Below, one piece after another: positions 3,834 to 25,243 of a stretch of 64,000 nucleotides of DNA. The stretch spans positions 160,001-224,000 of the forward strand of contig CAWJBB010000030.1 of NCBI GenBank assembly GCA_963840855.1, read 5' to 3'. Positions within the stretch are counted from its first letter, which is position 1, and each line of letters starts with the position of its first letter. The stretch comes from an uncultured delta proteobacterium. Its GTDB lineage: Bacteria; Desulfobacterota; Binatia; UBA9968. Under the pieces are notes generated by a model that made no database searches, had not been told where the DNA came from, and was given only the letters and a program-made list of their open reading frames with translations. A program made the translations under genes and the position numbers.

Positions 3834-3851
3834 AGCACCAAATATGGTGCT
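3834..3851. promoter_or_regulatory. Palindromic TA autorepression operator
   Basis: AGCACCA-AATA-TGGTGCT inverted repeat ~30 bp upstream of the Phd-type antitoxin start. Confidence 0.55.
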
Positions 3852-3882
3852 ATCTTTGATGTCATCGAAGTGGGAGGACGGC

Positions 3883-4167: not shown

Positions 4168-4459
4168 GATCACGCGCACGGCGGAGCGGAACGTCGAGAA
4201 CATTTAGAGTTTTATCGCGCAAGACAGCCCGGAAGAAGCCAGTCGGTTTATCGACCGTCTGGAAGACTAGATCGCAACCCTGGAGCGGTTCCCCGAAAGA
4301 TGTCCCCTCATTCCTGAAAACGAAATTCTCGGTACGCGATACCGACATCTGCTTTACGGTAGCTACCGAAGCGTGTTTCGCGTTAGGGGAAAAACGGTTT
4401 ACGTTATGCGGATAATCCATGGAGCGAGGCTTTTAGACAGCTCCATGTTCGAAGATTAG
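4145..4459 (+). pseudogene. RelE/ParE-family toxin with two in-frame TAG stops (4205-4207, 4268-4270)
   Basis: VPAKFRVRITRTAERNVENI*SFIAQDSPEEASRFIDRLED*IATLERFPERCPLIPE...YRHLLYGSYRSVFRVRGKTVYVMRIIHGARL. Confidence 0.85.
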
Positions 4460-4654: not shown

Positions 4655-7439
4655 TTAAACGTTGTTCTGCTCGGGTGCGTGGGGAGTTGTTCTTCGTCTG
4701 CGTCTCCGTTTGTATTCAGCGAAAGCATCGACGTCTGTCTCGCCCGAACGTAAGAAGTCCAGGAAGCTTACCCCTTTGAATTTGCAGCTTTGGCAAATGC
4801 TAAGAAGAATCAAATACTCGCGAATTCCTTTTTCGTTGGGCAGACCATTAAAATCTCTACGCAGCAACGCAAATGCTTTGATCGCGTGTTCAGCGTTGTT
4901 GTTATTCCAAGGCACTCCGTCAAAATCCAAAAAGGTGAAAAGGCCGCAGCGGTTCTTTTCCAAGCGCGTTTTGCACTTCAGTGCGGTTTCGGTCTGATAC
5001 TCTCGATCAGCGAGGCTCTTGAAATAGCGATCCACAGCCATCTTATGCGCACGCAGGAAGCGGGCTTTCAAGCCAAATCGGTCCACCGTCGCAATTATCG
5101 CCCTCAAGAGCACGGCAAACTCACTAACGAGTCCCTTCATCTCCTCGTTGAAGGGTTCTTTCATCAAGTCGTCGTTCAGGTCCCGAATCAGGTGAACCAA
5201 GCACTTCTGCTGCGGGCAATCCAAGGAGTCATAGGCGGCATAGAAATCAGAAACGAGCACCCCTTTGAAATCCTTGAGGAGAGAATGCACCAAATCCCCT
5301 TCCCTCGAAGCGGCATATACGTACACCACATCTTCCAAGTTCGTGAACGCCCAGACATATCCAACACCAGTCTTCAGGTTAACTCTGGTTTCATCGGCAT
5401 GCACGAGGCGCCCAGTTGCTATCTTCTTAATTAGTCTTTCGTAAGTAGCCTCGTAGAATGCAGCGGCGTTTGCCTTGAATCTGTTTGCCATACTGCGGGG
5501 AAGATCGAACCCAAGCACCTCATTCAGAAAGATGGCCACTCTATTTAGTGGTATCCCAAGTCCAATGTTCTCGTATACGGAGAAAGCACGGAGATTCTCG
5601 CCGAATTTTTTGTTGGTCCAAGTGTGGTCATGATTCCGAAAGACAGCCCTACATTCCGGGCACCGATAGAGGTGGAAGAGATACCTCGTGATCCATCTTT
5701 TGATTCCATAGATACCGAACTTGACGTCAAGCACGGTTTTGCTGCACTTTCGGTGCTTGTAGATTTTTGTGCCGCGACACTTGGGACAGCGTACAGGCGC
5801 AGACCACGTAAGGATTTTGTTTGCGCGGAGCTTGGCCCGCCTCGGTTTGTGAGCTTTCTGTGCGATTTTCCTGAGCCGCTGACTAGATCTAACCAAGATT
5901 CTTTCCCGCTGGTAATTCCAATAGGCGGCTTGGTTGATCGTCTCAAGTTCGGGGACTTGAAACTGCACCTTTTGAAACTTGAAGAGTGAGTTCCGGGGCA
6001 AGGATTCGACGTTGACAACCAGATCGCGGTCCCCATCTGTCGGTACAGCGATTGATGTCGAAAGGCTGCTGAGAAACTCAGTCAAAAGCCGCAGGCCTTC
6101 ACAGTCCTCCGCGTTGTACTCTATCAGCGCTTCCTTTACCGTCGGGTGGCGTGACTTCTCCCATTGGAGCCGCCAAATTACCGCCATCGCGCCCGATGCG
6201 TTCGGCGCTGACCATTTGAACCCCAACGACTTAGCACAGTCTTTGAGGCCGTTTGAGTGACTGGGAAAGTAAATACTCGCAAAAACGACGGACAGTAGAT
6301 TCAATGGTGATGCCACCGCTGTTGCCGCTCCTGAATTCATTGCCGGTTCTCCGTGCCGTTCACACATCCGCTTCAGGAACGTCGTTTCGTAACTGCCGTA
6401 GTGGATCAACACCGGATTATCGAGCCCAGAGAGCACCTCGAGAAAGTCGCTCCAGATTCGTCTCTCTTCGTCCACGCTGTCGGCCCACAAACTGTGCTGA
6501 ACGATTTTTTGCGCAGTTTTGACCCGGACGCCGATGAGGTAATAGAAATCACGATCTGGAAGTCCCTCGACATCTAGATACACAGGCGTCCCCTCAAGCT
6601 TCAAATCCGGACTGTCGACGATGTGGATTTTGCGCTCCCGAATCGCGAGAGCCTTAAGGGCGTGGTGATACTTCCCGCGCTTTTGAGCGAGGCGCTTTGG
6701 CCTGCGGCGTGGCCGGAAGGTGTAAGAGAGTTGGGTAACGCTGAAGATGCCCTTGCTGTGGAACTTTCTTCGCTCCTTCTCAGTCATCCGAGAGAGAAGG
6801 CTGAGGTCGTCTTTCTCAATCGCCTTTTGGCGACATCGGATTTGAAACTCGCATGCTGCACAATGCCGATTCAGAACGAGGTCGGGCGGTGATGGACTGG
6901 AAAGCAGCGCGGCAATCTTCCCGGTCAGCTTTCGCACCTCGCCTGCCAGAGGCGAAGTCTTGACCTTCAGCGTGGCATGGTGATCTCCGTAGATTATCTT
7001 GCCAAGGGCAACGTTACGTCCGTGGATCTCCGACAATATGAGCGCGTCGAACGCGAGCAACACTTTGTCGTCGCGAGTGAGTTTGTTGGTGAAGACGAAC
7101 CGAATCGGAATGAACTGAACGGGCTTGCCGCGCCCCTCTAACGAGAAGCGTTCGACCGCATGCATGCTAGATTCTAGATTCTCCGTATGGGCAACGACGT
7201 CGACAGCCAGTCGCCACTTTGAGGTTTTGAGGCGGCCCATATCGGACGAGGTGCGAACGCATTCACCGGAGGGGAGTCTATCAATTAAGCGTTCACGCCC
7301 CTCGTTACGGTAGCTCTCGCTCTCGGTCTGTATCCAGTTCGCGTAAGGATTGCTTACTGTCAGTTTCGCCCAGCGATTTGAGGAAGCATTTGGTGGGGCA
7401 TTTTAAGTAGGCCTCGAATACACCGGATGTCACAGTCAT
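4655..7439 (-). mobile_element. IS66-family DDE transposase fused to an N-terminal TM0106/RecB-Cas4-like nuclease and an RNase H-like exonuclease domain (frameshift ~7355)
   Basis: N-terminal FEAYLKCPTKCFL; LNRHCAACEFQIRC; YLDVEG...HYGSYE...YNAEDC (DEDD-like); CPKC...CPEC zinc finger; HADET, VSDFYAAY, QKCLVHLIRD, NNNAEHAIK (IS66 core). Confidence 0.8.
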
Positions 7440-7832
7440 GGCACGAGCACACTCCTGTCCAGGACAAGGGATATCAACATCGCACAAACTGGGCTAGGAG
7501 GGGCCGCTAGTGATGGGATCTTAAAATGACTAGGGGAAGAAAACGAGGGGAAAAAAAGGGGTCGTGAAAAGCGCTGGGATGAACCGGCATGCAGTAGCGG
7601 ATGAGAGAGCCGCACAAGAAAGGAGCGAGCAACTGGATTGTTGTCTTGCTAGAATAAATTCTTAATTTCGCCGCCTTCATAGTAATTCCACTTAAACAAC
7701 AACGTTAATTGCCCCCCAGAGGCATTTATTCTTATTCCTTCTCTCTTGCAAAGCCCGTGACGGATTTTTACCGAGCGCGGGAGTTGTGTTATGGCTCCAT
7801 GTGCAATTAGCTTACATTCCCGTGGAGGTGCT

Positions 7833-8276
7833 ATGGCTGAATCACCAAAACTCTGCCGTTATTGCTTCCAGGAAATAAACCCACTCGCGACAGTTTGCCA
7901 TCACTGTTCAAAATTACAAACCGGATTTTTCAAATTCCTAAATTATATTACGGTCGCGGAGGTACTGTCTTTCTTCATATCCTTAGGTCTCCTATGGTTC
8001 TCTGTAGCACAATTTAATACTGCTAACTCGCAACTTGTTCAGGCCAGCGAGGCAAACTCAAAAGCTGAGAGCGCTCTAAAAAAGGCTACTGCTATAGAAA
8101 CCCAAGTTTTGGACGCCCGTCGCGACGTGTTAAAGGTCGCCGAGTGCGTCATGGAAATTGCTCAAATACTTCCACGCACGGGCGGATTTGGCGGAGGGTT
8201 AGGAGAGCCAGATAAAGAAATACTTAAGAAAAATTTGGATTGTTTGAGAAACTTACCCAGTAAGTCGAAACAATAG
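7833..8276 (+). CDS. Hypothetical membrane protein with N-terminal zinc ribbon and coiled coil
   Basis: GGAGG RBS; CRYC...CHHC; one hydrophobic helix; AT-rich codon usage. Confidence 0.55.
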   Translation: MAESPKLCRYCFQEINPLATVCHHCSKLQTGFFKFLNYITVAEVLSFFISLGLLWFSVAQFNTANSQLVQASEANSKAESALKKATAIETQVLDARRDVLKVAECVMEIAQILPRTGGFGGGLGEPDKEILKKNLDCLRNLPSKSKQ

Positions 8277-8580
8277 ATGAAACTATTCTTCTATCTCCGC
8301 CGGCTTCGGCAAAGTGCACGATGAGTCAAGAAAGCAAGTCAAAAAAGGGGACGATTTTTGGACCGCGGAATCTAAAAGTAGCCTGTTCCCATTTGCTATC
8401 CCTTGAGCTCCTACTACGGAAGCAGACGAGGCGGCTGCAAAAACGATAATGCTCGATAGCCACTTCAAATCGACCTTCTTCGCACAACGTCGCCTACATT
8501 ATCATGGCCCCGCATCTTTCGACCACAACCGTTCGAGGTGGATCCCAGGCACGGTGCGGCGCATGTTGCTATGGTCTGCG

Positions 8581-8677
8581 GCTCAACCCTTAACGCTAAC
8601 CTGCCGCCGACCGGGCAACGCGTGGCGGGACCCAAGAGCAACGCGCTTGGGCGGTCAGGTTGAGCGCCTCGTTAGAT
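8581..8677 (-). mobile_element. Integron attC recombination site (97 bp)
   Basis: On the minus strand: R'' ATCTAAC - GAGG - L'' CGCTCAACC ... L' GGTTAGCG - TTAGG - R' GTTGAGC. Imperfect palindrome with an extrahelical base, starting 7 nt after the stop of the upstream minus-strand gene. Confidence 0.75.
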
Positions 8678-8684
8678 TGCACCG

Positions 8685-9310
8685 TCATTGCGTTGGGGGC
8701 CTCGGGAGTTGAGAGTCCAATCCCCGGCGCGAATCATCGGATGGGACGCGGAACAAGCGCTGAGCATTTTTTAGGTGCGCGGTTGTTCGCAAGCTGAGCC
8801 AGTGCTCGCGAGTCCGGAAGAAGAGCTTACATGAAACCCAAACAAACGTGGCCTCCTGTGGCACCGAAGTGACGTAGCTGTGACGGAACGCTAGCTTAGG
8901 ATTGATGTACGCGGCGTTCGCGAAAAGCCGCTTGCTTCCAATTCGCGTATCTATGGAATTCGGAAAATGAAGCGGGTGATTTATACGCTCATCGCCATCG
9001 CGGATTTCATCCAAGGGCAGGAGATATCGAACGGACAGCTGAAAATCCTCGGTAGAATTGCCTAACCAGTCCTTTGTTCGAGAGAATTGTGGCCACCTCA
9101 ATCAGCCACTGGTGATCTTGGATTCCTGCGAAAGAGACTTCAGATGCTGAGTTCTGTGCTCGGTTCCGCCTCGCGTCGGACGAGAAACAGCCACGATGCC
9201 CATACCCCGAGGCTATCATCCCTAAAGCGGCTAGCAGGACTTGCCAGGTCAGCGAGTGCCATAGAATCAATCTAAGAGTACCTAGTTCTGTATAGTACGC
9301 CATATTCATT
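8685..9310 (-). CDS. Putative integron cassette protein, membrane-anchored hypothetical (frameshifted; start approximate)
   Basis: ORF pieces 9007-9390 and 8685-9101 join by indels: WQVLLAALGMIASG...EVSFAGIQDHQWLIEVATILSNKGLVRQFY/EDFQLSVRYLL...; followed by attC. Confidence 0.5.
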
Positions 9311-9576
9311 AGGCTCGCCTTGCTGTCACTTTGACCGTTTTTATAATGGAGGACGATTTGTAAAGCTTCTCTGATGACACAAGCCGACAAATGCTGAAAG
9401 TTGTTTCTGTATAGTTAGGCTCATCAGGGTTGTGATTCTGTTACCGAACCCAAGGCAAACGTATGGCAACTGGCAAGCTTAGAATACTCGACTCTACAAG
9501 AACGTCCGGACGGCTCGCTGCAAACGAACTCTTAACCATGCAACCATTGGTCGGACCACGCTATATCTTATTTCTT

Positions 9577-9800
9577 TCAGGGTTTTTTCTCCCAGAGAAT
9601 AGTATTGTCCGGCTTTAGCGCGTCACTTTCGCTGACGAAATTACCCGCATAAGCTTCACTCTTTTCGCACAGCGTATACGTCCCGCCCACCGTGACTTGG
9701 TTTTGGTACCCGATCTTGCTCTTGACCTTTTTGACGCCAGCCAAACTGCCAACCGCGATCGCTTCCGACCAGTGATTCACTTGCACCGCCGTCTCGCCGG
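9577..9800 (-). pseudogene. C-terminal remnant of REP-associated tyrosine transposase (RAYT)
   Basis: WSEAIAVGSLAGVKKVKS...GTYTLCEKSEAYAGNF...NTILW resembles RAYT C-terminal tails. Confidence 0.5.
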
Positions 9801-10006
9801 TAAGGCGCTTCTCCTAACCATTGGCGGTGTGCTTGCTGAAAGTCCCGGCGATACCACGAGCATCTATAGGGTTAGCGACTTCACGGGGGTCGGACCTGCG
9901 TGAGATCTTGATTCCTCAATGTAAGTTTGCAAAATAGGCGTTCTTGAAAGGCTTAGCCGTAGCTTTTTGGCGTTGAAATAGACGATCTAAGGCAAACAGA
10001 AAGCCC

Positions 10007-10058
10007 GTTCCAGCCGTTCCAAACGTTCCACCGCTTCGCTCCGTTCAAATCGTTTAAG
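10007..10058. repeat. 9-bp-unit GTTC(A/C)A tandem repeat
   Basis: GTTCCAGCC GTTCCAAAC GTTCCACCG...GTTCAAATC; same family at 26135, 61214 and 63646. Confidence 0.7.
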
Positions 10059-10125
10059 AAATTGAGACTCGGCCAAGACTTTGAGGACGCAACGCCATTG
10101 AACCGCTCACTCTAAGAAATACGCG

Positions 10126-10180
10126 ATGCCGCACACCAACCGCCATTTTCTGCCTGGGCACGTCTGGCACATCACTCGGA
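10126..10180 (+). pseudogene. N-terminal remnant of RAYT transposase
   Basis: MPHTNRHFLPGHVWHITR matches the RAYT N-terminus (MPRxxR...PG.vwHit.R); homology stops after this. Confidence 0.55.
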
Positions 10181-10424
10181 ATCTGCCTGTCATTTGCTTT
10201 TAAAGAGGCGATGGAGAGTTTGTCACGTCAAAGACAAGCCGTTCTCAGATCAAACTGAAGGATAGCTAAAGCGGCGGTTCCTTGTTGCACTCCTGCGCCA
10301 AATTTGAAGGTGCGGGTGATTCACACCCGCCTCTGCATTCCGGGCATTGACATGGAGACAAACAGTGGTGAAATTTAAATAAAGCTCGCGGTGAGGCGTG
10401 CTTTAGACGAGCGGGAGGTTCAAA

Positions 10425-10745
10425 TTGATGGCTATCAGTCCGACCGGAATGATTAAGAGTCTTGGCTGGGGCCGCTTCTTTCAACTGCTGGTGCATCTGC
10501 CGAGTTTTTTAAAGCTGTTTGCGCAGCTGGTGAAGGATCCAAGAGTAAACATCGCGCCGAAGCTCGTGATCCTGGGTGTTTTAGCTTACGTCGTCCTGCC
10601 GACCGATCTGGTGCCGGATTTTATTCCGGGTTTGGGTTATGCGGACGACTTGGCCGTGTTACTCGCGGGCTTGAAGCTTTTTCTGCGCCTCTGCCCGCCC
10701 GAGGTTGTTCAGGAACATGTAAAGTCGATTGCCGCGGGAAAATGA
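10425..10745 (+). CDS. YkvA/DUF1232 family membrane protein
   Basis: KDPRV...LAYVVLPTDLVPDFIPGLGYADD signature. Confidence 0.9.
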   Translation: MMAISPTGMIKSLGWGRFFQLLVHLPSFLKLFAQLVKDPRVNIAPKLVILGVLAYVVLPTDLVPDFIPGLGYADDLAVLLAGLKLFLRLCPPEVVQEHVKSIAAGK

Positions 10746-11116
10746 TTAGCGAAGCCAGCCTTGGGACCAGGTCTAGAAATAATGCAAGTCAGCCAATAGA
10801 ACGATCGGGATCTGGCATAACAATCCTATTAATCTCCACACCAAACTCGATGATCGAATGATTCAGACATAACAATCACTACAATCTTCAAATCACCCGT
10901 CTTTTTTCTCTCGGAAAGCTGCCAAATCATCAGTCAGGATTCGGTGTTTTTTGGAGGCAAAAGAAAATTATGGTAAGTCGGGAGCTTTTCACATCGTGGA
11001 CTCAGCGCTGTGCGGCCTCCAATGCTTATGAGGTGTGAATCCACTACATACGCTGGAAGAACAGGCGCGTCACGACATCTCACTTGCGCTGGTGAATCTC
11101 AGAGTTTTATGACCAC

Positions 11117-12349
11117 CTATCCGACCGCCCGCATCTCCTGCCGCTCAATCTCCGTACCCGCCGCCTTCCTGAAGTCCTCCTCCTTAAAGGAGTACAGTCC
11201 AGCGCCTCCAAGAAAGATCTTCGCAGCTATCTCTCTGGGCACGTTCTGAAGGAGGTTACTGGAGACGTTGGGAAAGTTGGAGTCGAAGTGGGGATAGTCC
11301 GTCGAAATACACATGTGATCGGCGCCAATGAGGCTCGCCGTGGACGCGATCTCGGGTTCGCTGCCCTCAACCCCAGCCCAGCAGTTGCGCTGAAAGTACT
11401 CCTTGGGTGTCAAGGACAGGTAGGGCGCATGGGAATCCCGGTAGTTCGCATAGTCCCACTCGATGCGGCTGAGCAACCCGGGGACCCATGAGTTCTGGGC
11501 CTCCAGGTAGCCCACCCGGAGCTTGGGGTGAAACTCGAAAACGCCGGAGATGATCTGAGCGATCAAAGCCTGCTGCATTTCGATCCAATGGCTGGCTACG
11601 TGGCGGTAAAACCGGTTCTCTCCGTAGAGCTCGTTCATGTGGGAGCTCCAGGCGCCTGTCCCCTCATGGAAGCACCAGGCGACGTCCAGTTCCTCATGAA
11701 GACTGTATAGGGGGTCCCAGTAGTTCGAATGCCAGTAGTGGCCGTTTAGCAGGTTAGGGCGAATAAACGAAGCCACGGCACCCAGCTCACGAACACACCG
11801 CACCAGTTCCTGGCATGCCAAGTTGACATCATGTAGAGGAAGCATGGCAGCGAATTTCAATTGGTTGGCACTGTACTGGCAAAACTCGTGGATCCAGTTG
11901 TTGTAGGCCTGGCTTAGGGCCAGGGAGAGTTGCGGATCCATTCCGTTGCGGGAGATGAGGCTGAGACCACCGGTGGGGAACAGGACAGCAATATCGATTC
12001 CCTCCATCTGCATCGCCATGATTTGGGCTTCGGCGTCGTAATCTCGTTCGATCGCGAAGCGCAACCGCCCTGTCGCAGCCGAGCGGGAGGCCGATAGCTG
12101 ACCCGTCGCACTCCCGAGAATAGGGCCACTGGCACGCGACGATGCGGGCTTTTTGCGGTATTGCTGCAACTCCACGTCCATGGAGGCGGGCAAACCATCG
12201 ATGATCCACGACCGGTGGCTTAGCTTCCCGTCCGCGCCTACTGCCGACGTGACCCGGGACTTGAAAGCCGGGTTCAGGTACTTCTCAAAAAGGTCCCCCG
12301 GCTCCTGAATATGCATGTCACTGTCTACGAACCTCAGTCCTTCTTTCAT
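11117..12349 (-). CDS. Amidohydrolase family protein (Amidohydro_2)
   Basis: VDSDMH, FHEG, HPKLRVGYLEAQNSW, STDYPHFD. Confidence 0.9.
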   Translation of the reverse strand: MKEGLRFVDSDMHIQEPGDLFEKYLNPAFKSRVTSAVGADGKLSHRSWIIDGLPASMDVELQQYRKKPASSRASGPILGSATGQLSASRSAATGRLRFAIERDYDAEAQIMAMQMEGIDIAVLFPTGGLSLISRNGMDPQLSLALSQAYNNWIHEFCQYSANQLKFAAMLPLHDVNLACQELVRCVRELGAVASFIRPNLLNGHYWHSNYWDPLYSLHEELDVAWCFHEGTGAWSSHMNELYGENRFYRHVASHWIEMQQALIAQIISGVFEFHPKLRVGYLEAQNSWVPGLLSRIEWDYANYRDSHAPYLSLTPKEYFQRNCWAGVEGSEPEIASTASLIGADHMCISTDYPHFDSNFPNVSSNLLQNVPREIAAKIFLGGAGLYSFKEEDFRKAAGTEIERQEMRAVG

Positions 12350-13556: not shown

Positions 13557-14753
13557 TCATCGACCTTTTTTGTCCTTGGCCACCGCGCTCAAGCGCGGCA
13601 AGAACCTGATGGCGTTGTCGCTGAGCAGCTTGATCTTGGCGCTCTCCGGCATGGCTTTATCCCAGATGAGCGGCACTGCGTTGGGCCATGCGCTGCCGTG
13701 GTGCGGGTAGTCAGTCGAGAACAGCCAGGGGTGCTCGCCTAGGGTTTCGACAGCGTACGCTATGTGCTTTTCTTCAGCCTCAACCGAGCAGAAGAGGTTG
13801 CCATCCTTCAGGATTTCCGAGGCGGTACGTTTCAGCTTGGGGGTTTGTGGTGAGCCAGGCTTGTAGCCGTCGTCCAGCTTCTCGATCAGGTAGGGCATCC
13901 AACCACCGAAGCTCTCGAATAGGCCGATTCGGAGCTTCGGGAACAAATCGAAGACGCCGCCGCCGACCAGAGCCGCCAGCGCGTATTGTCCCCCGATGCT
14001 GTGGTAGAGGCCGTTGGGAGCTTCCACCCACGGGGTAAAAGGCGGCCGGTTCGCGCCGCCGTGAACCCACAATGGCATGTCGAGTCCTTGAGCGGCTGCG
14101 TATAGAGGATGGAGGTCCGGATTGTCGAGCATCCTGCCATCCGGGCAGGTACGTGGTATTTGCAGTCCGGCAAAGTGCGGGTCCTCCTTGGTCCAGAACT
14201 CCAACTGCGCGATGGTCTTCGGAACGTCCCGCATGGTGGAGGCCCCTATCCACCAAAGACGGCCGCCTGCATCAGCGCAATAGTTACTCATGAACCGGTG
14301 GAAGGCGTGGTGCAGGGCGCTCTCGAAGCCCACGTCGCGCAACGCGCAAAAGCTGTCAGCCGAGCTCGGGAAGATAACACTGATGTCGACCGCGGCGATT
14401 TCCATGTCTCGGAGGCGAATCGCTGGGTCCCAATTACAAGCGGGGTCTATCCGGACACCAGCATTCGTCGAAGCCCGATCGCCTTGGATGGCTTGCTCAG
14501 ACCGCGAGCTACCGTTCCCCTGAACCTCGTATGCCTCATAGACGCCTAAAGGGCGTGTTGGAAGGGCCGGCCAAAGAAACTCCGAGAAGCCACGTTCTCC
14601 CGCCCGGTGCTTAAGCGCATTCGCTGCTTCGCTAAACCGCCGGTACGTCTCCCGGTATTCCGGGGCCATATATTGTTTGTACGTCCGGTCTAGATCCCAG
14701 TACTGGCGGATGTGGGAATCCATGTCGATCACTACATGTCCGTTGTAGCTCAT
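13557..14753 (-). CDS. Amidohydrolase family protein (Amidohydro_2)
   Basis: MSYNGHVVIDMDSH, WVHGG, FPKLRIGLFESFGGW, FSTDYPH. The ORF-track extension to 15032 is the tail of the upstream gene. Confidence 0.88.
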   Translation of the reverse strand: MSYNGHVVIDMDSHIRQYWDLDRTYKQYMAPEYRETYRRFSEAANALKHRAGERGFSEFLWPALPTRPLGVYEAYEVQGNGSSRSEQAIQGDRASTNAGVRIDPACNWDPAIRLRDMEIAAVDISVIFPSSADSFCALRDVGFESALHHAFHRFMSNYCADAGGRLWWIGASTMRDVPKTIAQLEFWTKEDPHFAGLQIPRTCPDGRMLDNPDLHPLYAAAQGLDMPLWVHGGANRPPFTPWVEAPNGLYHSIGGQYALAALVGGGVFDLFPKLRIGLFESFGGWMPYLIEKLDDGYKPGSPQTPKLKRTASEILKDGNLFCSVEAEEKHIAYAVETLGEHPWLFSTDYPHHGSAWPNAVPLIWDKAMPESAKIKLLSDNAIRFLPRLSAVAKDKKGR

Positions 14754-14852
14754 TACTCGCCTCTCTGAGCGGTGCCTTGAAATAGGCCTCGCGATTTTCT
14801 TTTTAGGGCTACGGCCGAAGAAGTTAAAAAACTCTTTAAAAGGACAACCGCG

Positions 14853-15861
14853 GCTATTAAGGCCCATCACATCCCGATAAAGCTTAAAGTATGTTGTAGC
14901 GCTCATTTCAGGACGCACCGGGACAATCTTGAGGTTAGCTGGGATTTGCTTCAAGATTGGCGCTTCGAAATCTCTTCGGCCGGAATTGTATCCGATGCTA
15001 GCGAATTCTAGCTGGGTTTCTTTGGAGAGCATGAAGTCGATGTATAGCCTCGCCGCGTTCGGATGAGGGGCGCCTTTCAGAAGGGCCAGAACGAACTGCC
15101 GGCTTATCAGTGGTTCGACGGCAACTCAATCGACCGGAGACACCCGCCTATTTAGGAGTTCTATCCCGTGAACCAGGGAGATGGCGACAATCGACGCGTC
15201 TCCCGCGGCGAGCAGGGTTTGCATTTGCGAATGGCCACCGATGATTTTGACGTCCAATGCTGCGAGTTTTCGGAGGAAATCAAAGTTTTTTCTTCACCAC
15301 ACGCGCTGATGGCTGCAGCGATACACTTGCTTTCGTTTTCGTCATGAGAATCTTGCCCTTCCATTTCGGTGCAAGAAGATCAGAGAAGCTCTTGGGAACA
15401 TCTGCGCCTTTGACGAGATTCGTGTTATAGGCAATCACGTTCAGGGTCTCGGCGTTATCGCCCAAAATCCTTGTCATCCTATACTGTGGGCGAAACGCAG
15501 TCCTCTGCGGCGAATCATAGCTGTCTATCAAACCTTTTTTTAGGAGACCATAGAAATCCATTTCAGATTCGTGAATTACATCGGCCTTGGCGCTCTTGGC
15601 TTGGCCCTCGATTACAACTCGTTCGGCAAGCCGTTCCGAACCTAGCCGAATGACATTGACTTTTATGAATGGATACTTCCTAGTAAAAAGCTGGCTAATT
15701 TTTGCGATGTTGACAATTCCAGCGTGCCATAGAAAACAAGCTCGCCCTCTTTCTTGGCGGCTTCGACGACGGGCTGCGCCATCGTACTCGACAAGAGAAC
15801 CAAAAACAGACGCGAAAAGACTAACGGCTGTGAGAAAATTACGTAGTTTTTTCGGGGTCAT
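14853..15861 (-). CDS. ABC transporter extracellular solute-binding protein (AfuA/SBP_bac_6-like), several frameshifts
   Basis: FTRKYPFIKV, NVIAYNTNLVK..DVPKSFSDLLAPKWKGKI, LLAAGD, KGAPHPNAARLYIDFMLSKETQ; ends approximate. Confidence 0.75.
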
Positions 15862-15889: not shown

Positions 15890-17157
15890 CTAAACAGCCG
15901 CAAGACTGACGTTGAGACTAGGACCATGCCGTAAGAACTGCTCGACTTCGGTTTCTGTGAGGAAGCGCTTTTTACAGATCTCTTGGTAAAGTGCCTCGCG
16001 GATTTTCTCCATCTGCTCCGGCGAGGGCCGCAGTCCCATCGACTCCACTTTAAGATCCAAAACGTTGCCCCAGAAGGTACTGCTACCCCATACATAACGC
16101 TGCGTCTGCCCTACAACTTCGCCGACAAATGGCACATTAGCCTCGGGCAAACCCTCCTCTTCAGACTGCCCGACCTGAAGCATATGGGCAGCCGACTCCT
16201 CCAAAAAGGCGTTCTCTCCCGTGATAGCCTTGTTACGTTGGCAGACGACGCCGGTGACTTTTTCAGCAAATTTAGACAAAGCATAGAGTTTCTCGAGGTT
16301 GAGACCGGTGTCAACGCCGAAAAGAATCTGCAGCGAGGCGGCCACCTCTTCGAGGGAAGCATTTCCCGCCCGATCGCCCAGTCCGTTGATCGCTACTTCA
16401 CACCAATCGGCGCCGGCCTCGACCGCGGCCAAAGTGTTGGCTGTAGCAAGACAAAATCATTGTGGCAGTGGATCGAGAGGGATGCTCGCTCGCCGACTTC
16501 CTTCTTGAGCTCTTGCACGAAATATTTAACCGTAGTCGGAAAACGCTTCCCCGGCTGTCGTAGATATGGAGGTGGCTGGCACCGGCCTGGGCCGCTTCGC
16601 CGTACATCTTCTTGACAGTGTCCAGATTGGTTCGCGTTGCTTTGGACCAACCGAAAGCAACTTCTCTAGCTCTTTCACAGGCGTAAGGCACGGCCGCATC
16701 GATAGTTTTGTGGATCTCGTCTTTCGATATCCCTTCCTTAAAGTCTGAGAAGATCTCCATCGGTGAAAAGGAAAAATGAAGGTCAAGATATCGGCGTCTA
16801 CTTTCAACGCCGGTCGATATCCTTTTTCCAATCGCCCCGCAACTTAGCGCTAAAATATGCGAGCTTCGTCTTGACGCCTGCGCGGCGTAATTTTTTGACG
16901 AGTTCCGCGACCGCCTCGGTGGAGTGTAGCTTTGGGAGCTCAATCGCGCCAACTCCCAACTCGTCAAGTTTCAATGCCAGTTCTGTCCGCGCATCGGGAG
17001 AAATGATCGCCCCGACGGTCTCCTCGCCTTCCCGCATCGTGACATCGCGCAGAAAGACCTTCTTGGGGAGGCCAGCCATTTGGGCGCGCACCGGCGTTTC
17101 CCAGTTGAGAGGTGAGGTATACCACTTTCCCGGTACATACCATGGTTTTGATTCCAT
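15890..17157 (-). CDS. LeuA/homocitrate synthase-like (DRE-TIM metallolyase) protein, frameshifted
   Basis: LRDVTMREGEET, LDELGVGAIE, SIHCHNDF, INGLGDRAGNASLEEVA, NKAITGENAF. Confidence 0.8.
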
Positions 17158-17204
17158 ATTACCCCCTGAAAGTTTGATACTGAATGAGATCGCTCCTAAA
17201 TCGG

Positions 17205-17744
17205 CACTACTAAGTCTCTTAGGAATGCGGCCGGCATCAACTTCCATCTTTAGCAGCGGGACCATGCCGCCTGCTTCCAGTTTCCTTAGGATGAACGACG
17301 GCATGGGTTCGAACTGCAGTTCAACGCTGGATGAAATGTTGGTCAGGCATCCTTTTTCGAGATCAACCTCGAGCTCATCGCCTTGTTTAACCGCATACAG
17401 AATCCCGGAATAGTTCCACCACCGGCAGCCCGCGTTCTATCGAATTCTCAAGAAATATGGAGCCGATGTATCGCATATCACCGCAGCCACACCCGCCCCA
17501 AAATGGATAAACAGGCGTGATCGTGATCATGCCCAAAGCCCATGAACTCGCCGACGATGAAATCCCCTTTCTGGACCTTCTTCGGAAAATCGGGATCTAC
17601 TTTGGTCATGCAGTACTTACCGATCTCCTCCGGCGTATACATGCCTTTGGCCTGCAGCTCGTGAGAAATATCAAATACACATATTTCCCAATCGACATCC
17701 AAAACACCGCGAAATACCCAGGCCTTTCCTCTCATCGGCTTCAT
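17205..17744 (-). CDS. LeuD/DmdB-like aconitase small (swivel) subunit with atypical catalytic loop, frameshifted; 3' end approximate
   Basis: RGKAWVF, KYCMTKVDPDFPKKVQKGDFIVG, GFGHDHDHA (canonical GCGSSREHA), GDELEVDLEKG, LEAGGMVP. Confidence 0.8.
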
Positions 17745-17765
17745 GTCTCACCCTGCAATCTTCGC

Positions 17766-19029
17766 TCACAGATATTTTCTGGGATCCGTGATCTTGCCCT
17801 CCAGGCACGAGGCGGCTACGGTCATTGGGTTAGCTAAATAGATTTGCGCTTCTTGGCTGCCCATGCGCCCAGGATAGTTCGTTTGACCCGACCGCAATAC
17901 ACACTTCGTCGGCCGATAAAGGCGTGTTCGCGCCCCATTCCATACCCTCGTTGGGTGTGGGCACGACACACTCAGCGTCTACGAAGGTGTTTATCAACCC
18001 CTCATCTAAAGCTTGGCGAAGTATTCTTGTCGTACCTGGGGTGATGTTAAGCACACGCGCGGATGAATCTTCTTGCCTTTCAAAATCCGCGCGGCCATGC
18101 GCAAATGTTCTATCCAGCTGGCGGCGTCGCTACCGATGAATCCCCGGTTGATGGGCGTTCCTTCCAACTCCTTGATCGGTTTTACCAGATGGCGCTTTGG
18201 TGGGGGCACGACTTGAGGCTCCAAATTCCCGATATCGAACTCAAAAACCTTTGCATACTGCGCATCCGGATCGCTGCGCTGGGGTTCGAATGGCTCGATA
18301 GTCCGCGCGCGCACGTAGTCGAGAGTCTTTTGTCGGGGTTGATGATCGCGGTCCAGGCACCGGTAAAAATGGCGAAGGAGCAGAGCGAAAACGCTCTCCC
18401 ATACTTAAGGCGTCAATCACCGGTCCCGTCCATTCGAGCGCAGCGCCGCCGGCCCCGGTCGGTCCGATCTGAGATAAGAAATATTCAAATAAATCGCGCG
18501 CGCAAGTCCCGGGAGGGAATTCCCCTTTGACGACAATCTTGATACTCCGAGGAACTCTCATCCAGGTTTTACCAGTTATGAAATATTCCCCGCGTCCATA
18601 GGAAAGAGTGGTGGCGAAGGCGCCTAGTGCGCCGCTACCGCTCGAGTGCCCGTTGACCGCCTGTAAGTAAACCTCCCCGGGTAGCGCCAAGCTCTTTCAG
18701 CGGAAAACATGTTTTCAATGCCGGACCGGCCGAGAGTGTAAATGTTCTCGTCGGGGATGCCGACCGCCTTGGCCCATTTGCGCGCGCCCATGCGAGACCG
18801 CGCGGCATTGTGCGAGCTGTCGCACCGAGGTGACCGTCGACGATTCTGATGAGCTTTGGATTAAAAACGCCAACTTCCCATTCCACGCAGAACTCCACAC
18901 CACCCCGTAAGCCACCAAAATTTCCCATCGGCGTTGGACATCGGCTGCCGACTTCGACGTAGTCACCGGTGAAACGTCTTTGCGGCCGGCAGCTTTAGCG
19001 AGAATTTTTTCGGTAATCGTTTTTCCCAT
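17766..19029 (-). CDS. LeuC/homoaconitase-like large subunit lacking the Fe-S cysteines, frameshifted
   Basis: MGKTITEKILAKAAG, GALGAFA, TGKTWMRVP, SDPDAQY, LEPQV, GFIGSDAAS, PNEGMEWG, TNYPGRMGS, IYLANPMTVAASCLEGKITDPR. Confidence 0.85.
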
Positions 19030-19303
19030 ACGTGACTTCCGATGCGTAACCGAACGTATACCGACACGAAGGACGCTGTCAACTTTGCCGGGGATTCAGA
19101 GGAAGCTAAAAATTCGCGCGCGTTCGGTATGAAAAAGCAATTTGCGCGGTATCGAGAAGCCTCGTGAGGTGCGCGGCGGCGCGTAGCACAAAGGCGATCG
19201 AACTAATAGGCGGGTATTGTGTCAACGACGGAGATTCGGGGTCGAGCGGTCTGGACCACGCCCGGCCAGGGAAAAGGAGTTCAAGGGAGCAGTCTAAGAA
19301 TGA

Positions 19304-19786: not shown

Positions 19787-20269
19787 CTAACCAGCGTCGG
19801 CGCCAAGCCCGCTGGCCTGGGCGATGATTTCGTCCACGCTCTTATCTAGATTGAGCTTCCGGTTGATGCGCGCGTCGTCGCGCTCCTTTATGAGAGCGTA
19901 GATCTCCAGGCAGTTACCTTCCGGGTCGAGGAAATAGCACGACACGGTGTTGCCCATCTCCTCGTAAGCGTGGCTGACGCAGTGATCTATCGGCACGCCT
20001 TGCGCCTTAAATTTTTCGTAGAACTCTTTCACTTCGGCCGGCGTGCCGACCTTCCAGGCGATATGCGCGATGAGCTTGGCCTGGCCTTCGCGTCCCTTGG
20101 TCAGAGCCAGCTCGTGGTCTTCGGTGTTGGGATCGGAGGTCAAAAACACCATACCTCTCGAGTTTTCTCGGTACTTGACCAGCCCGAGAACATCCCGATA
20201 AAACGCGACCATTTTGTCAAGGTCGTTAACGTAGAGCACCACGTGGCTCAGTCCTTTGATCTTTGGCAT
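19787..20269 (-). CDS. VOC/glyoxalase family protein
   Basis: GLSHVVLYVNDLDKMVAFYRDVLGL, HIAW, YFLDPEGNCLE; AGGAGG RBS. Confidence 0.88.
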   Translation of the reverse strand: MPKIKGLSHVVLYVNDLDKMVAFYRDVLGLVKYRENSRGMVFLTSDPNTEDHELALTKGREGQAKLIAHIAWKVGTPAEVKEFYEKFKAQGVPIDHCVSHAYEEMGNTVSCYFLDPEGNCLEIYALIKERDDARINRKLNLDKSVDEIIAQASGLGADAG

Positions 20270-20488
20270 ATGCGATTCCTCCTGCACGCTTAGCGCGTGC
20301 CGTTTTTCCGCTTAGACGGTGATCGTCGCCTCTGGGACGGAACCTATCCGATATCTTCGTCTTGTGTCAACTTGGGACTGGCTAGCGTGAAATCGTCATG
20401 AGGCCTAAAGCAATCGTAAATTCGGATCTGCGAATGGAAGTCGCTTCCATAATCCGTGCGTAAGGTCGTATCTATGTGATTAACCTGG

Positions 20489-22586: not shown

Positions 22587-23867
22587 ATGCCGCTGACTTT
22601 GGCGAATCACCCCGTCACGAAGATCGACTTCGGAACTCCGACCCGACTCGATGGGACGGTGCTGGTTATCGATCGTGAGGAACTTCGCCGGCTGGTGCTC
22701 GACGACCGTTCTTTTACAGGCGTCGATTTTCAGATCATCGGCGCCGGCGATAAGTGCCGCGCCGGGCCGATCTTCGACATCGTCGAACCAAGAGCGAAAG
22801 CTCCCGGTTCAGGCGCCGATTTTCCCGGCATCTTGGGTCCGCCCGTAACCGCTGGAGCGGGGACGACCCATGTGCTCAACGGAGCGGCGCTCACAGTTTT
22901 GTCGGAGAGACTGCCGGGAGCGGAGCGAAGCGAAACCGGCCGCCTGCTGGAAATGACCGGCGCGGCGGGGGATGCGAGCGATTACTCCTCGCTAAGACAT
23001 CTGGTGATGATTCCGCACACGCAATCGGCATTGCCGTGGCCGGCGATGCTGAAAGCGTATCGCATCGCGAGCCTGAAAGTCTCCGTACACCTGGCTCGCG
23101 CGGCGCTGAATCACCCCCCGGTATCCGTGCAGACCTTCGATGCTGTTGGCCCCGTGGAGCCGGGACGCGAGGGGCTTTTCCGCGTCGCCTACGTCGGCCA
23201 GATTTTTTCGCGCCAGCGCAAACCCGAGGTGGATGAACCGATTCTCTATGGCGCCAACACGGACGGAATGTTGCCCATGGTTCTCCACCCCGACGAATGG
23301 CTCGACGGCGCGATCGTTCCGTCGTTCCATTCCTGGATGGGCAACACCGACACTTACTTCTATCAGAATCATCCTGTCGTCTTGGACCTTTACCGCCGCC
23401 ACCAGGCGCGAGAGCTTAATTTCGTCGGGACGGTGGTGACAATCGCGGGGGCCAACCATTTTGACCGCGAGCGTAACTGTCGAGTGGCGGCGCATCTGGT
23501 GAAGTGGAATCTGCGGGCCGATGGCGCGGTTCTGACCAAGTATGGTGGCGGATTGCCCCACGCGGACCTGGCGGAAACGGCGCGGCTGTTGGAAGTCACG
23601 GGAATCCGAACCGCAGTCATGGTTACTGACACGTCCCGAGACCGTCGGGTGGAGTCGGCATTGCTTTTTAACACGCCGGAAGTGAATGCCATTGTTTACA
23701 ACGGTGGCAACGGCACCCGATGGGAAGTTCCAATGGTGGATCGGATCATCGCGCCGACCCCCGAGTTGCGTGAATTGCTCGCCGGTCCATTAGTTGTCGC
23801 AGCGTCGGACATCGCCGGCGTTACGAATCAGCAAGGGGCATCAAAAATGAGAGCAATGGTCTATTGA
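22587..23867 (+). CDS. grdE: Glycine/sarcosine/betaine reductase component B alpha/beta proprotein (GrdE/GrdI-like)
   Basis: DIVEPRAK, FPGILG..AGAGTTHVL, LHPDEWLDGAI, TYFYQNHPVVLDLY, ADGAVLTKYGGG. Confidence 0.8.
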   Translation: MPLTLANHPVTKIDFGTPTRLDGTVLVIDREELRRLVLDDRSFTGVDFQIIGAGDKCRAGPIFDIVEPRAKAPGSGADFPGILGPPVTAGAGTTHVLNGAALTVLSERLPGAERSETGRLLEMTGAAGDASDYSSLRHLVMIPHTQSALPWPAMLKAYRIASLKVSVHLARAALNHPPVSVQTFDAVGPVEPGREGLFRVAYVGQIFSRQRKPEVDEPILYGANTDGMLPMVLHPDEWLDGAIVPSFHSWMGNTDTYFYQNHPVVLDLYRRHQARELNFVGTVVTIAGANHFDRERNCRVAAHLVKWNLRADGAVLTKYGGGLPHADLAETARLLEVTGIRTAVMVTDTSRDRRVESALLFNTPEVNAIVYNGGNGTRWEVPMVDRIIAPTPELRELLAGPLVVAASDIAGVTNQQGASKMRAMVY

Positions 23868-23870
23868 AAT

Positions 23871-23947
23871 AGGCGAGAGGCGGAAGGCGTGAGGGGAGAG
23901 ACGGAAATATTCCCGCATCCCTCACGCCTGTTGCCTCAAGCCTTGTA
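23871..23947. repeat. Inverted heptamer tandem repeats (AGGCNNN)4 ... (GCCTNNN)4
   Basis: AGGCGAG AGGCGGA AGGCGTG AGGGGAG ... CCCTCAC GCCTGTT GCCTCAA GCCTTGT; related arrays at 38279-38312 and 39857-39887. Confidence 0.6.
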
Positions 23948-23962
23948 CCCAAGGAGCCTAAT

Positions 23963-25243
23963 ATGCGCATTGTGCACTACTTGAACCAATTTTTCGGCGG
24001 TATCGGCGCCGAGGAGCACGCGGGCAAGTCATTGGAGATACGCGAGGGCGCGGTGGGACCCGGCCGGCTTATGGAGCAACTTTTAGGCGACGGCGCGCGC
24101 GTCGTCATGACGCTCGTTTGCGGCGACAACTACGCCGTCGAACGCCAGGAGGAGCTGACCGCGGCCGTTTTAGAGAAGGTCAAGGAAACGAATCCGGATT
24201 TGTTCGTCGCCGGGCCCTGCTTCGACGCGGGTCGTTACGGCATGGCGGCCGGCGCGCTGTGCGCGGCCGTTCAATCGACCCTCGGCATTCCCGTTATCAC
24301 CGCGATGAGCGAAGAAAACCCTGGCGCGGATCTCTATCGCGAGGCGCTTTTTATCGTCGACTCGGGCGTCAACGCCGCCAAAATGCGCGACGTGTTGCTC
24401 AAGATGGTGGACCTTGGAAAGAAGCTAGCCGCCAAAAGAGCGGTCGGCCTGCCCGCGGAGGAAGGTTATCTGCGCCGCGGACTTCTGCGCGACCAAATCG
24501 TCGAAGACCGGGCGGCAACGCGGCTCGTCGACATGCTCATGGCGAAATTGCAAGACGAGCCGTTCGAATCCGAGATGTTGCCGACGACTTTTCCACCGGT
24601 TCCCATGCCGTCCGGCGTGAAAGATTTGTCGAAAGCCAAAATCATGCTGATCACTGACGGCGGGCTCGTTCCGAAAGGGAATCCGGATCGGATCTCGGGA
24701 ACCGCCGCGACGCGCTGGGGCGCGTACAACATCGCAGGCGTCGATGATCTGCGCGGCGAAGCATACGAAATCTCCCACGGCGGATACGACACGCGGTTCG
24801 TGCAGGACGATCCCGATCGTTTGGTGCCCCTCGACGCCATGCGCGAGATGGAAACGCGCGGCGTCATCGGTAAACTGCACGAAGAATTTCTCTCAACCTG
24901 CGGGCGATCCAATCCGCTTTCGAATACCCGGCGGCTGGGCAGGGAGATGGCCGAGAAGGTGAAGCGGGAAGGCGTCGATGCGGTGATCCTCACGTCCACT
25001 TGAGGGACGAGCACGCGCAGCGGCGCTGCGATCACGACAGAGTTGGAGAAAGCGGGCATCCCGGTGGTCCAGATCACCTCAGCCCTGCCCATCGCCAAGA
25101 TGGTGGGTTCGAACCGCGTCGTTTTGGGCAACGGCATCGTGCATGTCACCGGCGACGCCAAGCTGCCACCCGAAGATGAGAAGAAGCTGCGGCGCGAGTT
25201 GGTGCAAAAAGCGCTGGACGCGCTCCAGTCGAACGACAAATAA
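23963..25243 (+). CDS. grdB: Glycine/sarcosine/betaine reductase selenoprotein B (GrdB family); UGA 25001-25003 = selenocysteine
   Basis: MRIVHYLNQFFGGIG, CGDNY, AGRYG, GGLVPKGNPD, HGGYD, VDAVILTST-U-GTSTRSGA...ELEKAGIP...VGSNR continues in the same frame after TGA. Confidence 0.9.
25001..25040 (+). promoter_or_regulatory. Putative bacterial SECIS hairpin
   Basis: CGCAGC-GGC-GCTGCG stem-loop (25016-25030) with a G-containing loop, just 3' of the in-frame UGA. Confidence 0.55.

Follow-up and report, generated by a model that had tools for sequence, protein, structure and literature searches.

Introduction

Dehydratases of the aconitase family provide the textbook case of a non-redox, catalytic iron-sulfur (Fe-S) cluster and are prime targets of oxidative damage, and the three Cys residues that ligate the [4Fe-4S] cluster are the hallmark of the aconitase superfamily. 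Here we analyze a LeuC/LeuD-type gene pair in a 64,000-nucleotide stretch of DNA from an uncultured delta proteobacterium (genome G000, contig C30, positions 160001-224000; hereafter, the window), in which the residues at these three positions are Asp, Glu and Glu (D/E/E; D303, E363 and E366 in the numbering of the intact orthologue L025). The genome bin comprises 7.1 Mb in 93 contigs, and it is 94% complete and 8% contaminated.

The best solved relative of this pair is the LeuC/LeuD enzyme of M. jannaschii (MJ0499/MJ1277; structures 4KP1, 4NQY and 3VBA), which is matched with E-values of 4e-69 by the large and 7e-37 by the small subunit. Both are two-subunit systems of ~420 plus 170-180 amino acids (aa) with a neighboring LeuA-type synthase, but where the M. 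jannaschii enzyme has the three Cys with their [4Fe-4S] cluster and the motifs DSH, NMAIE, SNRNF and GSSREHA, the pair described here has D/E/E, NGH, S-x-A-I-F, GQTNY and GHDHDHA. That M. jannaschii LeuCD also hydrates maleate is reported in PMC8307300. Within the family itself, the Cys-bearing sisters (e.g., P0028, P0316, L010 and L027) resemble the D/E/E proteins in their 55-65% identity, in the NGH and NYPGRMG motifs, in the GHDHD loop and in their equal length, but they differ in keeping the three Cys (47/47), His147 (46/47) and a fourth Cys in G-T-C-N-Y (43/47). No characterized member of this Cys-retaining sister group was found in our searches.

Other described systems are related in organization or in the fate of the cluster. 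In the nicotinate fermentation of Eubacterium barkeri, the 2,3-dimethylmalate dehydratase DmdA/DmdB, an Fe-S enzyme of an anaerobe, is said to work with the lyase Dml; the pairing of a LeuCD-type hydratase with a lyase of the phosphoenolpyruvate (PEP)-mutase/isocitrate-lyase family resembles the loci L026, L027 and L032, whereas the partner in the window is LeuA-like and not isocitrate-lyase-like. The maleate hydratase of the gentisate pathway (HbzIJ; Pseudomonas pseudoalcaligenes) is reportedly a heterodimeric, LeuCD-like catabolic enzyme that acts on an unsaturated dicarboxylate, and an older report is said to describe a colorless maleate hydratase that needs no cofactor, with subunits of 57 and 24 kDa; these subunits are larger than those of the D/E/E pair. 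The iron regulatory proteins (IRPs) function without a cluster. The clusters of AcnX are of the [2Fe-2S] or [3Fe-4S] type and are bound at a site other than the canonical one, according to PMC8184944. Like the D/E/E proteins, AcnX and IRP1/IRP2 belong to the aconitase superfamily, depart from the canonical [4Fe-4S] site and are among the fold matches of our model; unlike them, AcnX is still an Fe-S protein (with a template modelling (TM) score of 0.53-0.55 to the model), and the IRPs are eukaryotic RNA-binding or regulatory proteins rather than operon-encoded two-subunit enzymes. A full-text literature search, which misses most subscription journals, returned no published description of a Cys-free LeuC/LeuD-type protein.

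Results

Asp, Glu and Glu occupy the positions of the cluster ligands

The minus strand of the window holds only short overlapping open reading frames (ORFs) between ~14.9 and 19.0 kb, and three genes (LeuC-like, LeuD-like and LeuA-like) were rebuilt there by frameshift-aware alignment to intact homologues (Table 1). An initial annotation, made from the letters alone, had read the interval 17205-19029 as an aconitase-family pair without cluster cysteines; this interval matches the LeuC-like and LeuD-like genes, and the motifs FIGSD, PNEGMEWG, GQTNY, AVNGHS and GFGHDHDHA are all present on the minus strand where they had been placed. The rebuilt LeuC-like protein is identical to the metagenome homologue P0001 in 387/416 residues. 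Its frame breaks were reproduced against L020 and L025, and no in-frame stop was observed. The profile PF00330 (cut-off 28.7 bits) scored 165.2 bits on the intact L020 large subunit, and it was found in 3/8 fragments of 17478-19029 with 43.5, 31.6 and 17.3 bits, the third being below the cut-off.

When an intact orthologue was aligned with the M. jannaschii large subunit (4NQY/4KP1) by HMMER, D, E and E fell exactly on the three Cys, the first of which we take to be Cys358 of pig aconitase, GQTNY fell on SNRNF, and NGH on DSH. In the corresponding alignment of the small subunit with 3VBA, GHDHDHA fell on GSSREHA. The catalytic and substrate residues of isopropylmalate dehydratase and homoaconitase are largely exchanged as well: Asp165-Ser166-His167, His147 and Arg447, and Ser642-Ser643-Arg644 of the small subunit, read N-G-H, N, T and H-D-H, respectively. 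None of the indels in the LeuC- and LeuD-like genes touches these motifs, and turning a Cys codon into one for Asp or Glu takes 2-3 base changes. The named NCBIfam models scored below their cut-offs with the large subunit (NF001614, 319.5 vs 385; TIGR01343, 310.1 vs 385.7; TIGR02083, 269.4 vs 610.65) and with the small subunit of an intact orthologue (TIGR02087, 106.1 vs 108.95; TIGR02084, 103 vs 245.85), the best small-subunit model being named 'LeuD/DmdB family'.

A second, intact pair is present on contig C59 of the same genome. This paralogue (a 422-aa large subunit plus a small subunit, with 83% DNA identity to the window) carries FIGSD, PNEGMEWG and GFGHDHDHA. A canonical LeuC with the IGSCTNS and SNRNFIGR motifs is encoded elsewhere in the genome; since ordinary Fe-S aconitase-family genes are kept elsewhere, the D/E/E pair is accessory and not a replacement of LeuCD.

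The D/E/E pattern marks a single conserved clade

Word-indexed homologue searches gave at least 37, and then at least 120, matches, many of them of 422 aa and 75-96% identical; P0001 and P0007, two intact 422-aa metagenome homologues, represent 57 and 138 member sequences, respectively. A scan of species genomes gave eight loci, all with D/E/E, from a Micromonospora isolate and from metagenome-assembled genomes (MAGs) that bear the titles Binatia, 'delta proteobacterium' and 'Syntrophobacter sp.'. Altogether, D/E/E members are known from Binatia and Burkholderiales MAGs and from the Micromonospora isolate. From a metagenome scan 7/80 loci (L027-L033) were at least 46% identical, and the other 73 were ordinary LeuC relatives, which were excluded. 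The distribution of the gene among relatives is patchy. In 41 genomes, a tally that takes in the unpublished G009 and G015, high-identity copies were found in G000, G012 and G023 (D/E/E) and in G019 (Cys form) only. A phylum-wide search at E<=1e-100 recovered 2/301 genomes, namely G012 and G000, the latter by its C59 copy, because the frameshifted window copy falls below this threshold. In an exhaustive search of 50%-identity representatives (5527 matches at E<=0.001), the family proper was represented by P0038 (63%) and P0039 (49%), and the next matches were at most 43% identical. The database names of members are generic ('3-isopropylmalate dehydratase large subunit', 'aconitase family protein'), and in the ESM Atlas only generic 'aconitase family / isopropylmalate dehydratase' clusters were found. 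The named Cys-form sisters are mostly from Chloroflexota, including Dehalococcoidia MAGs.

The family alignment comprised 116 rows, i.e., 111 of 121 proteins (excluding 10 with fewer than 400 or more than 450 aa) and 5 translated from loci, and was divided into 69 D/E/E and 47 Cys rows. Positions 303, 363 and 366 read D, E and E in 69/69 D/E/E rows each, as they do in the window copy, and C in 47/47 Cys rows each. Position 384 follows the same division without exception (Q in 69/69, T in 47/47), and it is followed closely by positions 385 (T in 66/69, C in 43/47) and 107 (N in 64/69, H in 46/47), whereas H67, H129, N386 and R390 are each present in 69/69 D/E/E rows. In a 74-row maximum-likelihood tree built under the posterior mean site frequency (PMSF) model, the D/E/E rows form one clade with a Shimodaira-Hasegawa-like approximate likelihood ratio test (SH-aLRT) support of 98, within a family clade (99) that otherwise retains Cys. 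A 123-row FastTree, rooted with six ordinary LeuC-like proteins, also unites the 70 D/E/E rows as one clade (support 100) inside a grade of Cys forms, so that a single change, from Cys to D/E/E, is sufficient; both trees are quick or FastTree builds. As read from these sequences, the Cys residues appear to have been replaced by D/E/E in a single event within a LeuCD-type family.

The initial annotation had proposed that the exchange was selected, rather than a product of decay or noise, and that homologues with the same residues should be sought. Such homologues exist as a conserved clade that spans soil and sediment bacteria, so that the pattern is not private to the window, and selection is borne out by the invariance in 69/69 rows, the single origin, a ratio of nonsynonymous to synonymous substitution rates (dN/dS) of 0.035 between orthologues and the intact paralogue in the same genome. 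Purifying selection acts on the D/E/E pair. A private sequencing artefact was considered and rejected as virtually impossible, since the same residues are present in 69/69 rows that include an isolate genome and short-read assemblies, and the indels spare the motifs; the only point in its favor was the many indels of the window copy.

Outside the family, neither of the LeuC-like representatives P0079 and P0141 has a Cys at any of the three positions, their motifs being G-G-S/H-x-G-G and P-P-S-x-G-S-N-Q; the CxxC pair is missing from P0073, and P0095, P0156 and P0169 also lack cluster cysteines. LeuC-like proteins may have lost the cysteines on more than one occasion.

The remodeled cleft motifs are older than the loss of the cysteines

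The residues that changed with the ligands can be separated from those shared by both forms of the family (residue roles and numbering follow pig aconitase). Specific to the D/E/E clade are the three ligands, His147 to Asn (GIEH to GIEN), Thr-Cys to Gln-Thr at Asn446-Arg447, and the loss of the Asn near Asn258. Family-wide, in both forms, are V-D-G-H in the Asp100-His101 region, N-G-H for Asp165-Ser166-His167, Phe for Glu262, N-Y-P-G-R for N-F-x-G-R and, in the small subunit, the loop G-H-D-H-D-(H/Q/E) for G-S-S-R-E-H. The HDH core of this loop is present in 120/120 of the small subunits listed and HDHDH in 106/120. Because the Cys-bearing sisters have them, the HDHDH loop, NGH and NYPGR are older than the loss of Cys. 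The initial annotation had taken the His/Asp loop as part of the cofactor swap, and this part of it fell, since the Cys-retaining L010, L027 and L030 pair with a loop of the same type (GHDHDQ, GHDHDH and GHDHES, respectively). The equivalents of His101, His167, Asn448 and Arg452 are kept in 69/69 D/E/E rows.

The Cys sisters carry a fourth conserved Cys in G-T-C-N-Y-P-G-R, at position 385, which is the Arg447 site (43/47). It becomes Thr exactly where the three ligands become D/E/E, and it may have been a fourth cluster ligand or a catalytic residue.

Predicted fold and heterodimer

An AlphaFold2 model of the L025 orthologue, made from a 26-row alignment, had a predicted local distance difference test (pLDDT) score of 88.5 and a predicted TM score of 0.91. 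Foldseek placed it next to 4KP1 (TM 0.91, 34% identity), 4KP2 (0.90) and 4NQY (in the 0.89-0.91 range), and aconitases followed with 0.82-0.86. The earlier remark that the rest of the fold is conserved therefore agrees with the model, in which the three-domain alpha/beta fold of the large subunit is retained.

The large and small genes lie side by side in 14/14 D/E/E loci with downstream DNA (window, L004, L008, L009, L019-L026 and L028), and the two subunits were modeled together. The heterodimer reached ipSAE interface scores of 0.93, 0.93 and 0.94, against 0.02 for the best control; the mark applied to this score is reached by 58/80 solved complexes and 2/110 mismatched pairs, a calibration that is approximate here, as the run used its own alignments and two riding, unscored Fe(II) ions. 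The pLDDT of the partners was at least 93, and the runs agreed in at least 94% of contacts. The score may reflect the memory that the model has of aconitase domain packing. The GHDHD loop of the modeled small subunit (residues 70-75) contacts residues 126-128 (VNG), 222-227, 385 and 387-390 (T, YPGR) of the large subunit, so that the predicted region of loop contact is the canonical active-site cleft.

The frame breaks of the window copy

Altogether, 15 one-base indels (7 + 3 + 5; 13 missing and 2 extra bases) were found in the three rebuilt genes, with no in-frame stop in 1004 aligned codons and no larger deletion. The dN/dS of the window copy against L020/L025 was 0.036/0.039 for the LeuC-like, 0.077/0.039 for the LeuD-like and 0.031/0.033 for the LeuA-like gene, and the values for the intact L020 against L025 were 0.035 (large subunit), 0.068 (small subunit) and 0.032 (LeuA-like); dS is saturated (>1.2) in these comparisons, so that they detect only a sizeable relaxation. 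By three-point arithmetic on dN, the nonsynonymous branch of the LeuC-like gene is 0.030 in the window and 0.029 and 0.025 in the intact lineages.

The stretch was also compared with Logan contigs from four studies of soil and freshwater sediment, mostly 90-99% alike. No sequencing run shares more than 0.21 of the sampled words of the stretch, so the contigs come from relatives and not from the source. They carry one extra letter at 11 or more places (15470, 15786, 16451, 16537, 16784, 16810, 17446, 17495, 18054, 18332 and 18391) and, among the rows listed, are without one letter at 17413; some of these sites are present in only 1-3 of the 4 runs. The differences at 15470 and 15786 fall in the solute-binding protein gene, and the other 10/12 listed fall in the three genes, a few bases from 10/15 of the independently inferred breaks. 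A generally noisy genome was considered as the cause and rejected, given that only 46/4206 windows of 3.2 kb in the genome have a maximal open frame as short as 240 aa or less.

We consider it likely that the frame breaks are local consensus or assembly errors, and that the genes are functional in nature, because the breaks are single-base only, come with no stops and with orthologue-like dN/dS, and the Logan contigs carry the missing letters. Weighing against this, the same letter adjoins the inserted one in 6/11 cases but not in 5/11, which makes a simple homopolymer-error account incomplete and only half supported, and the breaks are strongly local, the region that bears them (226 aa) being in the lowest ~1% of the genome by open-frame length. 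These same facts would also be expected if the window copy were a real, very recently inactivated operon, i.e., a pseudogene cluster made redundant by the intact C59 paralogue, with at least 17 one-base indels confined to ~14.9-19.0 kb between intact flanking genes in a genome that is not noisy overall. Such an inactivation is unlikely, since every event is of a single base, with no larger deletion and no stop in the aligned codons; neutral decay that collects 17 indels should also leave many substitutions and several stops, and the window branch has no excess of nonsynonymous change. Moreover, the C59 paralogue is without the LeuA-like and solute-binding protein genes, so that these were not redundant. 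The divergence of the comparison contigs upstream of the LeuC-like gene (see below), which suggests a low-coverage or strain-variable assembly path, also speaks for errors rather than inactivation. Unless sequencing reads confirm them, the frame breaks of the window are no reason to call these genes pseudogenes.

The contigs of all four runs leave the window at 19086-19093 and continue as two different sequences. Synteny breaks off at this point, immediately upstream of the LeuC-like gene and near the end of the indel-rich stretch, and the divergence suggests a strain-variable segment assembled at low depth. A C59-type LeuC-like gene in a short-read Binatia MAG (L024, 6233-7499) is likewise split by the alignment into two segments that overlap (residues 1-82 and 76-422), pointing to a frame break or an insertion around residue 80.

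Gene neighborhoods

The gene context could be read in ~17 loci with usable flanks. In the window, the minus-strand operon comprises LeuC-like, LeuD-like, LeuA-like, solute-binding protein and Amidohydro_2 genes (Table 1). The order LeuC-like, LeuD-like, LeuA-like (413-414 aa) is common to the window, L020 and L025 only; the initial annotation had asked whether homologues share gene neighbors, and they do so for the LeuA-like gene in these three loci but not in the others, where the neighbors vary. The LeuA-like protein matches PF00682 with 175.3 bits and has, in L020 and L025, the sequence IHCHNDFG with the HxH metal motif; an HMGL-like domain (Pfam) was matched in three fragments of the window gene. 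The NCBIfam subfamily scores were below the cut-offs (276.4 vs 517; 259.8 vs 484.75), which places this protein, as judged by its profiles, in the isopropylmalate/citramalate/homocitrate synthase family at large, with no named equivalog.

Different partners are found elsewhere. In the Micromonospora cluster, the genes comprise a LysR regulator, a YeiH-like membrane protein, the D/E/E pair, an isochorismatase-family hydrolase, two polysaccharide-deacetylase-like genes, an ATP-binding cassette (ABC) ATPase, a protein of the PEP-mutase/isocitrate-lyase family and a flavin adenine dinucleotide (FAD) protein. A PEP-mutase/isocitrate-lyase-family gene also adjoins the Cys-form pair in L027 and, in L032, a 46%-identical relative. 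The recurring partner of the pair would thus be, by its family, a C-C lyase or synthase for 2-hydroxy-acids. In the D/E/E locus L028, Amidohydro_2 comes next, with luciferase-like, PGA_cap and second Amidohydro_2 genes nearby, and the neighbors in L021 include an NMT1-like binding protein and a cupin. The relatives L031 and L032 neighbor a glycyl-radical enzyme and an aldehyde:ferredoxin oxidoreductase, both indicative of an anaerobic life.

At two unrelated loci, a PGA_cap (CapA-like) gene lies a few kb from the D/E/E pair (L024, 4595-5722; L028, 11791-12972), and both loci also hold solute-binding or Amidohydro_2 genes.

Table 1. Features of the window around the D/E/E locus
Feature	Coordinates	Strand	Remarks
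LeuC-like large subunit (aconitase family, D/E/E clade)	17769..19029	-	frameshift-aware alignment
LeuC-like one-base frame breaks (7)	near 18966, 18815, 18686, 18389, 18331, 18055, 17892	-	
AVNGHS	18660-18643	-	in place of G-A-D-S-H-T
FIGSDAAS, Asp codon GAC	18128-18126	-	replaces first cluster Cys; D303 in L025 numbering
PNEGMEWG	17955-17932	-	second and third cluster Cys (C-x-x-C) to Glu; E363, E366 (L025)
PNEGMEWG Glu codons	GAG 17949-17947, GAA 17940-17938	-	
SGQTNYPGR	~17891-17865	-	in place of S-N-R-N-F-x-G-R
LeuD-like small subunit	17200..17744	-	3 one-base breaks near 17495, 17447, 17410
GFGHDHDHA, small subunit	17540-17514	-	in place of GCGSSREHA (catalytic Ser/Arg loop)
LeuA-like (isopropylmalate/citramalate/homocitrate synthase-like; HMGL-like domain)	15921..17157	-	5 one-base breaks
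Solute-binding protein gene	14856..15790	-	orthologue of L025 11060-12253; three frame pieces
Amidohydro_2 (PF04909) gene	13557..14753	-	annotated start 15032
Thioredoxin-like [2Fe-2S] ferredoxin-family ORF, 106 aa	19304..19624	-	directly upstream of LeuC-like
Glyoxalase/dioxygenase-superfamily ORF	19787..20287	-	upstream of LeuC-like

The last piece of the solute-binding protein gene continues in frame into an annotated ORF of 491 aa (13557-15032). This ORF is composite, its first ~59 codons being the C-terminal end of the solute-binding gene in the same frame, and the true start of the Amidohydro_2 gene is probably near 14753 and not at 15032. As no stop separates the two genes in frame, a further assembly error near 14856 is likely. 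The [2Fe-2S] ferredoxin-family ORF was not seen upstream of the LeuC-like genes in L020 or L025; in L020 a Glyoxalase-family gene lies ~2.7 kb upstream of the LeuC-like gene, with two genes between.

Further from the locus, the window holds at 4655-7240, on the minus strand, an intact ORF of 861 aa that joins an IS66-family DDE transposase, RNase_H_2 and a weak Cas4-like match (E 7e-4), an architecture unusual for a transposase. Beside it, a Phd/YefM-type antitoxin ORF (PF02604, 45 bits) at 3844-4167 is followed by a small ORF at 4113-4415, and the two probably form a toxin-antitoxin pair. At 22587-25003, adjoining genes match glycine/sarcosine/betaine reductase component B (PF09338, 228 bits) and GRDB (PF07355, 442 bits). 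In a second ORF-poor stretch, 7240-11117, there was no Pfam sign of broken genes, and 1/4 fragments was matched (DUF1232).

Discussion

Judged by its sequence, the pair has a known fold and architecture in which the defining cofactor site has been replaced. From this we infer its metal binding, reaction and substrate as follows. One lineage has swapped the three [4Fe-4S] cysteines for Asp/Glu/Glu, together with the shell residues His147 (to Asn) and Thr-Cys (to Gln-Thr). The heterodimer would still be a hydro-lyase, be it a hydratase, a dehydratase or an isomerase, and its substrate a dicarboxylic acid of the maleate/malate type, either unsaturated or with a 2-hydroxy group. A divalent metal at D/E/E(+Q/N) would take the Lewis-acid role of the unique iron of the cluster, and the base role of Ser642 would fall to a His or Asp in the HDHDH loop; because no Fe-S cluster would be needed, the proposed enzyme would be oxygen-tolerant. 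The hydroxy-acid would be passed to or from the neighboring C-C lyase or synthase, which is LeuA-like here and isocitrate-lyase/PEP-mutase-like in other genomes. We give an even chance to the core of this proposal, namely a hydro-lyase without a cluster, with a divalent metal on D/E/E(+Q/N) in place of the unique iron and a His or Asp of HDHDH in place of the Ser642 base. Its full version, a one-step, lineage-wide swap to a mono- or binuclear divalent-metal Asp/Glu/Glu (+Gln/Asn) site that faces HDHDH in an oxygen-tolerant, Fe-S-free hydro-lyase, is more tentative and somewhat less likely than not. By analogy, the lyase or synthase context and the hydration of maleate by the closest solved relative support a hydro-lyase role on an acid of the maleate/malate type. 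As to the link with oxygen, the Cys forms occur in Chloroflexota/Dehalococcoidia and the 46%-identical relatives lie near enzymes of the anaerobe type, and the D/E/E forms occur in Binatia, Burkholderiales and Micromonospora.

Several observations weigh against this proposal. The least confident block of the model, residues 361-370 (pLDDT 54), is the PNEGMEWG loop that holds E363 and E366, and D303, E363 and E366 are outside the contact list of the heterodimer model; the convergence of D/E/E and the HDHDH loop on one site is proposed from homology. The canonical residues Asp165, Ser166, His147, Glu262 and Arg447 are replaced by Asn, Gly, Asn, Phe and Thr, and Ser642, Ser643 and Arg644 of the small subunit by His, Asp and His; with most canonical substrate and catalytic residues gone, the reaction may be something other than a hydration. 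Given the conserved fourth Cys of the sisters, the cluster of the ancestor, too, may have been other than of the catalytic, open-site type, in which case D/E/E need not hold a catalytic metal. The gene context is not uniform either: neighbors differ from copy to copy, no LeuA-like gene adjoins the C59-type copies (L004, L019 and L024), and no LeuB-like gene was found among the annotated neighbors of any copy, a genome-wide LeuB search not having been made.

Two other explanations have to be weighed against a catalytic metal site. D/E/E(+Q,T) might merely fill the cavity of a four-Cys cluster that was once structural or regulatory, with or without a structural ion, and catalysis would rest on the family-wide His and Asp residues (H67, H129 and HDHDH), the cluster iron never having been needed. 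This would account for the change of C385 (43/47 sisters) along with the three ligands, for the presence of the HDHDH loop and NGH in both forms, so that the swap would have left the presumed catalytic machinery as it was, for the same kind of lyase neighbor beside both, and for the absence of the Fe-proximal Asp165 and Ser166 already in the Cys forms. However, D, E, E and Q are invariant in 69/69 rows down to ~55% identity, which is stricter than expected of a filler, and on general chemical grounds three packed carboxylates without a cation are unfavorable; in addition, position 385 lies at the modeled subunit interface near the HDHD loop, so that the fourth Cys need not be a ligand, and the Cys forms, like catalytic aconitases, retain His147 (46/47). 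We regard a purely structural replacement, the main alternative, as possible but doubtful. Alternatively, the heterodimer could be a non-catalytic pseudoenzyme that binds a ligand, a metal or a partner, as a sensor, chaperone or storage protein, comparable with the cluster-free IRPs, whose structures (3snp and 6vcd) were also matched by the fold; hardly any of the canonical catalytic and carboxylate-binding residues has been retained, and solute-binding proteins recur beside the genes. A pseudoenzyme is nevertheless highly improbable, as the genes lie in metabolic operons with a synthase or lyase and an amidohydrolase and not beside regulators, strong purifying selection extends over the whole protein, including the cleft residues, and the same remodeled cleft is found in the sisters that keep the cluster.

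About 70 sequence clusters automatically annotated as '3-isopropylmalate dehydratase' are almost certainly not that enzyme. If the proposed catalytic metal site is correct, the D/E/E pair would be the first natural case of aconitase-type dehydration on a carboxylate-bound metal, and the Cys-bearing sisters, which represent the 'before' state, would offer a natural paired experiment. Such proteins could supply oxygen-stable hydratases for chiral hydroxy-acids. A clade of single origin that has kept the fold, the heterodimer and the operon setting without the cluster cysteines would show how an enzyme of this family can escape from its dependence on Fe-S.

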